A stretch of 61,137 nt of DNA from the sequence record KJ909655.1. One strand, given 5' to 3'. Numbering within the stretch: the first letter of the stretch is position 1; each line of letters starts with the position of its first letter. This DNA is from Escherichia Stx1-converting recombinant phage HUN/2013. A program made the position numbers. Below, in pieces: positions 18,001 through 21,000 of this stretch.

Positions 18001-21000
18001 ATGTTGTTGGTGGTGTGCTTGGTGCATTCAGCCCGATTGGCAGTGAGACGTCGGAAACACTGTCCGGGGCATTGCTGAAAAATGCAGCGCCGACCATTCT
18101 GCGTCCGTTTGCGAACCTTGCCATGAATGAAAACTTCATGGGGGCGCAGATTTACCAGGAGAACATGCCGTTTGGTACACCAAAACCTGACAGCCAGCTG
18201 GGAAGACGTTCAACGCCAGAAGCGTACAAGGCGTTTGCATCCTGGCTGAATGCGTTCTCAGGTGGCAGCCAGTACCGTCCCGGCGCGGTGGATATCACAC
18301 CGGAATCGCTGAAATTCTGGATTGACTATATCTCCGGAGGGACAGGGCGCTTCATTTCCAAAACCACGGATGCGGCGGTGAAATCGCTGAATGGTATTGA
18401 TATACCGGAACAGCAGGTGCCCTTCCTGGGGAAAATTTCGGGGGAGGTGATGCCGTATGCAGACCAGCAGAAGATGTACGACCGGATGACAGAGATTGCG
18501 CAGTATCACGCAGAGCTGAAGAGTCTGACCGGTGCAGAAAGAACGGCGTTCATTGACGAGAACAACGGAAAATTGTCGATGAACGGGCTTATGCAGGATA
18601 CCCGGAAGAGACTGAAGGATTTGCGTAAACAGCGTGATGCCATTTACGCCGACAGTACTCTCAGTCTGGCGCAACAGTCGGCGATGGTGAAATCGGTAGA
18701 GCGGGATATGAAAATTGCCGTGGATCGGTTTAACCGCGAGTACAACAAAAAAGTGGGAGTGGATTAACAGAAATGGCCCCGTACGGAAGTGCGGGGCTGA
18801 TTAAGAAATAAACACTCATTGACCTGTAATAACCGGAGCTATTAACATATAGTCAGAAGAGCATTTCATGTGATACAGAGAGCCGATTTATGTTTAATGA
18901 AGAAAAAGTTGCGCAAATGGCAGCGTATTTGCTGAAAAAGCATGGCGGATCTATGCGTTTCATTAAGCTGAAGCAGCAACGGTAATGGCGAATAGCATTT
19001 ATGAGCAAAATAATCTTGATATGTTATTAGGCGATCTGATGTAACCGGGATGATGTTCACCCCTTATCGCCGGGGAACAATACCGGCAATCAGAATTGCG
19101 GATGGAACTATTCAGGCCCACGATGATATCGATGAGGAGTTTTTTCAGCCAGTATTGGATGGCTTTCTTATATCCAAATATACGCCATTTGACATCCTCC
19201 ACGCCCTGAAGGACGGGGTTTTACAGCGCACCGGATAAGATTCGGTGTTTTGTTGAAAAATACTGTGATAACAAACAGAAAACCCGTCAGTAAGACGGGC
19301 TTAGCAAGCTGGGACGGTTACTTTAATAATTTCAGTGCCTTTACATCCACTTCAACACTGCTCAGGTCTTTATCAATTTCACCCTCAATTCTTACTTTGT
19401 CTTTCGGAGAAACATTCTGCCCGGCCCATATGCTGTCATCGATATCCGTGACAATTGTCCCGCTATTGTCACGAAACTCATAACGTTCATCACCCACTTT
19501 TTTAACGATGCTCCCTTCAAGGATAACCCATGCATCATCCTTCAGTTCTTTTGCCTGCGCTACTGTTGAACGCTCTGCTTCAGGCCCTTGGAAACCGCCC
19601 TGCTGTGCAAAAGCGCCAAAAGACACACCAGAAATAAGTGCTGCAATCAATACCTTTTTCATTCATAGTCCTCTTTCAGAGATGAACATTCAAACAGCAT
19701 TTTCAGTATGGTAAAGCGCGGGTGCGTTGAGGATGCCTGACACATCAGAGGTGGCGGGAGATTACTCCCCCGCTTGGTCTCTTACTTCTCAGATTCGTAG
19801 TCTACGAAGACAGCGACCTCCGTCTGACCGGTTCGGATTCGCACCTCGCAGAGGTCTTTCCTCGTTACCAGTGCCGTCACTATGACGGTTAAACAGATGA
19901 CGATCAGGGCGATTAACATCGCCTTTTGCTGCTTCATAGCCTGCTTCTCCTTGCCTTTCGGCACGTAAGAGGCTAACCTACATGTGTTCAGCATGGATTG
20001 AGCCTCAGATTAATGTTAAGCGTCTTGCCGGACGCGTAATGTTAACTGGGGCTTTTCTCTATCTGCCGTTGGTGTTCATGCCCGAGGCAGATAGCCTCAA
20101 GCACCCGCAGCAATTCTACTTAACTCTCCTTTTCCCGCAAACCGTTTTTATCTCCAGCGACAAATCGAATACACAACCAGCACCACCGCCATTACTGTTC
20201 CTACATTTGCGAATGCTTCAGGCCAGGTCATTGATTCACCTTCTGCTCAATATTTTTAAGGTCATTTTCCGCATACAGTATTGCAGTTCTTGCTGCCCGC
20301 AACCGTGCTTTGGTGTTCTTTTCTTCACGCTCGAGGCTGGCAACAGATTCTCGGAGCTGATCGTGTCTGTTATGAAGCTGTCTAATCTCTCTCACCACAG
20401 CCTCACCATCGTTCGCACACCGCAGAACATACTGAAAAGGGTCCACAACACATCCGCACTGCAAGCACAGGATAACGTGATCCTGTTCATGAACCTCAAT
20501 GGCCCGATGCTTACAGCTCTGTTGTGTGTAGTTTTTTCTGCCAGTTACTGTAATGTTCAGCAGCTTCTCTTCATCGCGCTTTGGCTGCACCAGTGTGATG
20601 ATATTATCGCCTTCATTTTCCATCAGTTCACCTCCTGCGGCGGTTCTGGTAGCGGCATCCAGTGTGACGGTTTCCACGACGCACCAGGAATTATCCACCC
20701 ATCATTAGCGTCAGGATGCCCCGGGATGTAAGTCGCCCACTTCATTCGCCAGTCACCTTTCCTGTCAAACTCCACGGCAACAAGAACGGCTGTTTTGGTA
20801 TCCGGCATTCGCTCACTACAACTTATCCAACCATCCGGAGTTACCGGAGAGTTGCCAGACAGCGCATTCTGCAACCGTTCCAGCTTAACGTATTCCTGAA
20901 CCCTGTTTCCGTCGCACGCCTGAAGCCATTGCTCAGCCTTTTGCGCATCAGTGTGAAAGGCACAAGTGCGACCGTCATCAAATTGCATTTCGTAGAGGTT

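Follow-up and report, generated by a model that had tools for sequence, protein, structure and literature searches.

The hokW-mokW-sokW locus of an Stx2 phage: a map of its regulatory RNA elements and the absence of a terminator after fbi

We consider the hokW-mokW-sokW locus in the genome of Escherichia Stx1-converting recombinant phage HUN/2013 (sequence record KJ909655.1; "the window" is the whole stretch of 61,137 nucleotides), a locus that is already known from a GenBank annotation of 1999 and from experiments published in 2021. The record of phage 933W (AF125520) annotates hokW, mokW and sokW (the last as misc_RNA) at what are window positions 19782..19937 (-), 19782..19994 (-) and 19986..20056 (+), and its note reads "prophage maintenance"; the current PGAP annotation has the Hok coding sequence alone. 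The same locus in Sp5 of strain Sakai (ECs_1245) differs from neither 933W nor the window in sequence, and each annotation has its counterpart in the window. A segment of 551 bases with the locus in it matches many E. coli O157:H7 chromosomes at 100% identity, as it does the Shiga toxin (Stx) phages 933W, VT2-Sakai (Sp5) and Stx2-converting phage I, and 16700..23237 of the window is 99.985% identical over 6.5 kb to prophage Sp5. Accessory cargo of a temperate Stx2 phage, the hok/mok/sok locus is complete and is very probably a functional type I toxin-antitoxin module of the 933W/Sp5 type. As an identification, this adds little. What the present map adds to the 2021 paper and to the PGAP annotation is the position, to the base, of the regulatory RNA elements that both omit (tac, ucb, dcb, fbi and a 3' stem-loop), a phage copy that is without the terminator underlying the classical 3'-processing clock and is joined to the gene of a periplasmic BOF stress protein, and a testable explanation for the loss of the antisense RNA on induction.

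The prophage Sp5 was the study object of Takada et al. 2021 (Toxins 13:796; PMC8621323). All of their primers and probes map to the window without mismatch save the designed mutations, so their experiments apply directly to the window sequence. In their hands HokW arrests growth and is neutralised by sokW transcribed from its own promoter; mutation of the sokW -10 box (TAACCT, window 19974..19979) removes the protection, and sokW supplied in trans restores it partly. A lysogen contains both the hokW mRNA and the sokW RNA by northern blot (the probes lie at 19949..19978 and 19986..20015, respectively). After mitomycin C the sokW RNA is lost and the hokW mRNA persists. The tagged protein HokW-3FLAG is seen about 2 h after induction, in a RecA-dependent manner, in the inner membrane. 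Deletion of the locus delays the growth arrest by about 40 min and halves the phage release.

The best-known comparison is hok/mok/sok (parB) of plasmid R1, and hokW is like it in the order of its elements, in the pairing of tac (translational activator element) with fbi (fold-back inhibitory element), in the pairing of ucb with the mok Shine-Dalgarno (SD) sequence, in the sok promoter lying over the hok SD and in the 5' tail of Sok lying over the mok start; the Rfam leader model RF01794 matches both. The two differ in that hokW has a Sok target hairpin longer by about 16 nt, an in-frame mok and no terminator after fbi. HokW and R1 Hok are 44% identical as peptides (PMC8621323). The settings differ as well: R1 carries its locus on a plasmid, for plasmid maintenance, whereas hokW is on a phage and its shown role is in lysis and phage release.

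The toxin open reading frame (ORF) of hokW encodes 51 amino acids from ATG to TAA. Its product is matched by the Pfam family HOK_GEF (PF01848) over all 42 profile positions (E = 4.3e-23, 81 bits, with a cut-off of 22), as a hydrophobic Hok/Gef peptide of about 50 amino acids. Aligned with a HokD/RelF-type protein, it has 4 substitutions in 51 residues (92% identity). On the hok strand, RF01794 matches 20106..19932 (-) over all of its 157 model positions (113.5 bits, gathering score 59, E = 4.6e-25), so that the structured 5' leader of a hok mRNA is present as well. The Pfam and Rfam matches are not compatible with chance. The original prediction, which named a hok toxin locus with a 51-residue product resembling HokD/RelF and proposed a covariance-model search as the check, is confirmed in its identification, and that search is positive.

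Using the element definitions of Le Rhun et al. 2022 (PMC9841398), and with mRNA position n corresponding to window position 20107 - n, we can place the elements that the first reading of the sequence could not: both promoters, tac, ucb, the mok SD and ATG, dcb, the hok SD, the 3' stem-loop and fbi (Table 1). The interval originally proposed, 19782..20130, takes in the hok ORF, mok, sok and the hok -10 box, but it falls short of the -35 box (20140..20135) and of the elements in the 3' untranslated region (UTR; 19781..19720). The hokW promoter is kept in three relatives (loci L006-L008) and placed as in R1, and its +1 coincides with model position 1 of RF01794; a simple consensus scan of the window does not call it because the -35 box matches at just three of six positions. 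The overlapping mok frame, 70 codons long, has its own SD (GAGG). The 3' stem-loop is conserved among the relatives in the alignment, compensatory changes included, and by analogy with the equivalent stem-loop of R1, whose role is described in PMC9841398, it is the probable protective end of the processed mRNA.

The RNA of 407 nt from 20106 to 19700 folds with z = -6.7, and its minimum free energy (MFE) structure holds the tac/fbi pairing (12 bp with one bulge) together with ucb across the mok SD. The tac-fbi duplex of hokW has a free energy of -21.5 kcal/mol. Across nine loci this duplex lies between -17 and -22 kcal/mol and is kept with compensatory differences, its two sides co-varying as GGGUGC/GCACCC (hokW type), GGGUGCC/GGCACCC (hokB) and GGCGC/GCGCC (R1 type), so that the pairing of the 5' end with the 3' UTR is found both in the predicted fold and in the comparison of loci. 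By the definitions in PMC9841398 there are also the alternative pairings: the closed form is given by the MFE fold, and the open form (tac/ucb, the target hairpin and the mok SD with dcb) is the Rfam consensus structure, which the window satisfies. From the R1 paradigm we infer a switch from tac/fbi to tac/ucb in hokW, and likewise the coupling of mok and hok.

We turn to the antisense RNA. The sokW promoter aligns with the sok promoters of R1 and hokC, and its -35 box overlaps the hok SD, as in R1. SokW starts at G19986 and ends in a long hairpin with the tail GGGGCUUUU; its predicted fold has -32.6 kcal/mol and z = -5.3. A cis-encoded antisense RNA with a promoter and a terminator hairpin of its own, lying over the mok start, is therefore present, and the antisense gene is assigned on the strength of this promoter and terminator, together with the published northern blot. 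The Rfam match has to be read separately from this assignment. RF01794 bears the name "sok antitoxin" and is built on the hok-sense 5' leader, here the strand 19932..20106 (-); in K-12 (loci L003, L004 and L011 were checked) it matches the strand opposite the annotated sokC and sokB, spanning the leader to the hok AUG. Since the model describes the hok-sense strand, its match in the window is evidence for the hok leader, and its strand is not that of the antisense gene.

Closer in sequence than R1 are the chromosomal and prophage hokD-type loci of E. coli (for example strain 300709, L006; strain 98208, L008; and K-12 hokD/relF in Qin). Their DNA is 91-94% identical to that of hokW from the promoter to 10 nt past fbi, the peptides are 92% identical to HokW, and tac and fbi are identical. 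They keep the terminator CCCGC-TTCG-GCGGG with a T run and adjoin DUF968 genes, whereas hokW is joined to a BOF gene. In K-12 hokD the entire leader and sok are lacking, with homology beginning only at 19951 and no RF01794 match, in contrast to the complete leader of hokW. The K-12 locus hokC(gef)/mokC/sokC resembles hokW in having mok in frame with hok, SokC and SokW begin with the same nine bases GUUCAGCAU, and the RF01794 scores are similar (118 bits for hokC, 113.5 for hokW); in hokC, however, the downstream IS186 interrupts the locus and has removed fbi, which hokW keeps. Since mokB of K-12 is out of frame while mokW and mokC are in frame, both layouts occur in the family.

The homology of hokW to the hokD-type loci ends at about 19710, and it is here that the phage locus departs from its relatives. 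In L006, L008 and K-12 hokD the terminator stands 6 nt after fbi, and the R1 terminator is at the same place. In the window this place is taken by an AU-rich stretch that leads into the ribosome-binding site of the BOF gene (YgiW/YdeI type). Neither a consensus scan nor a custom hairpin scan nor local folding found a terminator belonging to hokW itself: the consensus scan shows no terminator-like site on the minus strand from 19781 to 19303, and the 96 nt 3' of fbi are unstructured (z = +0.8). In the R1 paradigm an intrinsic terminator shortly past fbi sets the length of the full-length mRNA, which is then trimmed slowly from its 3' end; hokW has none there, and this is the one feature in which it is not quite the "canonical" locus of the original prediction. 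The custom scan needs perfect stems and missed the imperfect hairpins of L007, L009, L012 and hokB, which are seen in the alignment, so that its negatives for these four are not meaningful and the contrast rests on L006, L008, K-12 hokD and R1.

With its own terminator lost, the 3' end of the hokW mRNA would have to arise by processing or at the first convincing intrinsic terminator on this strand, at 19302..19280. A search for a promoter of the BOF gene from 19781 to 19663 gave no consensus match, and by eye there is just a weak TCCTCA-17-CATACT. Judging from the sequence, hokW and the BOF gene are probably co-transcribed, the primary transcript running on into the latter. If there is such read-through, the 3' end on which an R1-style processing clock depends would come from endonucleolytic cleavage or from the trimming of a much longer tail. 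The word "terminator" does not occur in Takada et al. 2021 (PMC8621323), which gives no transcript sizes, and the 6% polyacrylamide of its northern blot is poorly suited to resolving an RNA of about 830 nt. A literature search by the locus tags ECs1244 and ECs1245 returned nothing, and no published transcript-end data were found. The missing terminator and the joining to the BOF gene are small additions to knowledge and not discoveries. We note besides that a search of E. coli genomes shows hok joined to BOF in the 933W/Sp5 phage lineage only, and that read-through from the hok promoter may supply lysogens with the product of the BOF gene, a periplasmic stress protein.

As to mechanism and ALTERNATIVES, the published reading has the best support: a functional type I pair has its toxin freed at prophage induction and aids lysis. 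The toxicity, the antitoxin, the transcripts, the SokW loss, the localisation and the phage yield in the following are taken from Takada et al. 2021, the elements and the predicted folds from the present analysis. A weak constitutive promoter (-10 at 20118..20113) would give the hokW mRNA from 20106. In the full-length mRNA, tac would be paired with fbi and ucb would lie over the mok ribosome-binding site, which would keep translation silent. Once the 3' part is removed, tac would, by analogy with R1, be able to switch to ucb and free the mok SD. SokW (71 nt, from the opposite strand, 19986..20056) would then pair across the mok start region of the freed form, blocking the translation of mok and of the coupled hok and leading to degradation of the duplex. 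On prophage induction SokW is lost, and HokW is made and inserted into the inner membrane, with growth arrest and lysis coming earlier and phage release approximately doubled. Stx2 phage release drives the Shiga-toxin output of enterohaemorrhagic E. coli, and the hokW module raises this release modestly.

Several points weigh against this picture. The fold of the 3'-truncated mRNA gave no clean tac/ucb form, its MFE structure being at odds with its centroid and both differing from the textbook form; since this fold is uninformative, the Rfam consensus was used for the open form. The requirement for RNase III and Hfq is only partial, and the effect on phage yield is two-fold, measured in a K-12 lysogen and not in O157 (PMC8621323). 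In addition, by primer mapping the HokW-3FLAG reporter strain has 19726..19784 replaced, which costs fbi 7 of its 13 nt and removes the 3' stem-loop, so the western-blot kinetics stem from an mRNA with an altered 3' UTR. That a reporter short of the 3' stem-loop and over half of fbi is still silent until induction suggests that SokW may be the dominant brake in the lysogen, outweighing the end-pairing.

Alternative roles for the locus have to be weighed against the published one. In post-segregational killing, or prophage stabilisation, loss of the prophage would leave the cell without the short-lived SokW, and the stable mRNA would yield lethal HokW. The wording of the 933W GenBank note is in its favour, and killing of this kind and a role in lysis are not mutually exclusive. 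However, the sole measured phenotype of hokW is faster lysis and more phage on induction, deletion of the locus has no effect on the growth of the lysogen (PMC8621323), and segregational loss is rare for a single-copy chromosomal prophage; no post-segregational stabilisation experiment on hokW was found in the literature searched, and we regard this role as doubtful. The "stress-triggered killer" of the original prediction fits the faster lysis and the two-fold gain in phage release after induction, although what benefits is the phage, and the effect is not one of defence.

A defensive role is less probable still. In abortive infection, or phage exclusion, superinfection would stop host transcription, SokW would decay and HokW would kill early, protecting the lysogen population. 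The locus as it stands would suffice for this mechanistically, and R1 hok/sok on a high-copy plasmid lowers T4 plating (cited in PMC8621323). Against this, the PADLOC defence models have no match to Hok or its neighbours and a survey of Hok proteins saw no enrichment of hok near defence systems; we regard this role as improbable. That the locus is an inactive remnant, as most chromosomal hok loci of K-12 are, is excluded: a terminator lost at a mosaic junction and the truncated, leaderless state of K-12 hokD (the closest named relative) would point that way, but no damage is seen in the ORF, in mok, in either promoter or in any leader element, and the RNAs, the protein and a deletion phenotype have been observed on identical sequence (PMC8621323), and the broken leader with no antisense transcript by which the original prediction would have recognised a remnant is contradicted by the northern detection of sense and antisense RNA.

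The next question is what removes SokW when the prophage is induced, a cause that Takada et al. leave open (PMC8621323). A LexA-controlled upstream promoter as the RecA-dependent trigger was considered and rejected, there being no CTGT-N8-ACAG box near 19.9-23.3 kb; elsewhere in the window the pattern has three matches, a number that 6 of 100 shuffles also attain and that does not stand clearly above chance. A tentative proposal, and an unlikely one at present, is that hokW acts as a sensor of excision and induction that is wired into the early-left operon of the phage. The cIII region (31122..31180), xis, int, attP, the antirepressor block, hokW and the BOF gene are all on the minus strand, and the terminator-like sites from attP to hokW are all weak, so that antiterminated transcripts could enter the hok leader after circularisation. 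In the prophage, attP is split and hokW would be at the far (attR) end, where pL could not reach it. Upon excision and circularisation, N-antiterminated pL transcripts could cross attP and read through the hok leader in sense orientation; the sokW promoter, which faces them, would be occluded and SokW titrated. The RecA- and induction-dependent disappearance of SokW would thereby be accounted for. If true, the loss of the hokW terminator would place hokW and the BOF gene at the end of this extended operon, as its last cistrons.

There is also a candidate TadA-editing motif in hokW. The UAC codon of the C-terminal Tyr (Tyr47) and the G after it (19799..19796 (-)) fall within the 7-nt loop, CUACGAA, of a predicted hairpin with a 4-bp stem, whose local fold is no stabler than shuffles. 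The UACG conforms to a pattern that 62% of Hok peptides are described as having, in which A-to-I editing by TadA turns Tyr into Cys, and the full toxicity of HokW may depend on such editing. The predicted loop CUACGAA is the same as the anticodon loop of tRNA-Arg(ACG).

Table 1. Coordinates of the hokW-mokW-sokW elements and of neighbouring features in the window.
Feature	Position	Strand	Comment
LPD38 domain-containing protein (PGAP; 933W L0134)	10347..18767	+	Single 2806-aa ORF; ends ~1 kb from the hok region, convergent
First convincing intrinsic terminator on the hok strand	19280..19302	-	Terminator scan; hairpin fold z = -3.4
YgiW/YdeI-type BOF gene (L0136 / ECs_1244)	19318..19662	-	Pfam BOF 5e-33; signal peptide; 57 nt 3' of fbi
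fbi CCUCAACGCACCC	19720..19732	-	Predicted to pair with tac, 12 bp, one bulge
3' stem-loop	19754..19773	-	8 bp, GUAA tetraloop; just past the stop codon; in full-length and truncated folds
hokW SD, start and stop	SD AAGGAG 19952..19947; ATG 19937; stop 19784..19782	-	Read from the sequence
mokW ORF	19782..19994	-	70 aa; in frame with hokW, common stop codon; ORF list; AF125520 mokW
sokW promoter	19951..19979	+	-35 TTGCCT (19951..19956), 17-nt spacer, -10 TAACCT (19974..19979)
dcb GCCUC	19969..19973	-	Pairs with mok SD in the open (truncated) form (Rfam consensus); adjoins sok -10 box, as in R1 (PMC9841398)
sokW antisense RNA	19986..20056	+	71 nt; single-stranded 5' tail against the mok start region, long hairpin, U-rich tail; AF125520 misc_RNA; northern-detected
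mok SD GAGG	20003..20006	-	8 nt 5' of mok ATG (19994); covered by ucb in the full-length fold, dcb-paired in the Rfam structure
Sok-target hairpin	20048..20006	-	~16 nt longer than Rfam consensus
ucb / anti-SD AAGCCCC	20048..20054	-	Pairs with mok SD (full-length MFE fold) or with tac (Rfam truncated-form structure)
tac GGGUGCUUGAGG	20095..20106	-	Pairs with fbi (full-length fold) or with ucb (Rfam consensus)
hokW mRNA, +1 to fbi end	19720..20106	-	387 nt, 3' boundary putative; northern-detected; homology to hokD-type loci to ~19710
hokW promoter	20113..20140	-	-35 TTGCGG (20140..20135), 16-nt spacer, -10 TAGAAT (20118..20113); +1 = G20106; read from the sequence
AntA-type antirepressor gene	22058..22687	-	
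Four GCCCCAA(A) repeats	23052..23101	-	Adjoin the position matching the 933W attR core
attP core	about 23225..23231		Position matching the 933W attR core
int	23253..24587	-	xis next, also -

The window is in the phage (attP) permutation, with stx2A in the part from 36 to 61 kb, and the hokW region belongs to an accessory stretch between the giant LPD38 gene and attP. The description of the locus as "next to attP" is a loose one: the attP core is about 3.1 kb and six ORFs from the start of the hok mRNA. The GCCCCAA(A) repeats by the core are probably arm-type integrase binding sites of attP. Shortly before the hok promoter comes the end of a hydrophobic 27-residue ORF, MTWPEAFANVGTVMAVVLVVYSICRWR (20148..20231 (-)), which overlaps the stop codon of the gene ahead of it; in L006 and L007 its 3' part and the hok module are conserved together, and neither Pfam nor PADLOC gives it a match.

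Farther along, the Rfam model sRNA-Xcc1 has a full-length match of 69 bits at 22728..22816 (-), with a good promoter-like site (22935..22906, TTGACA-18-CATACT) on one side and the AntA-type antirepressor gene, which starts at 22687, on the other; it may be a small RNA or an element of a 5' leader. Two pairs of direct repeats, 21053..21523 with 27631..28102 (about 470 bp, 94-96% identity) and 21789..21921 with 28097..28229 (133 bp, 83% identity), lie in ead/Ea22-like and DksA/TraR zinc-finger genes and bracket attP-int-xis. Recombination between them would delete the integration module from the phage form, or most of the genome from the prophage form. The other Rfam matches above gathering are c4-a1b1, isrK and C4 antisense RNA (a cluster), STnc100 and the lambda cIII RNA thermometer (40390..40588, 45207..45416 and 31122..31180), RNAs that are typical of lambdoid Stx phages.

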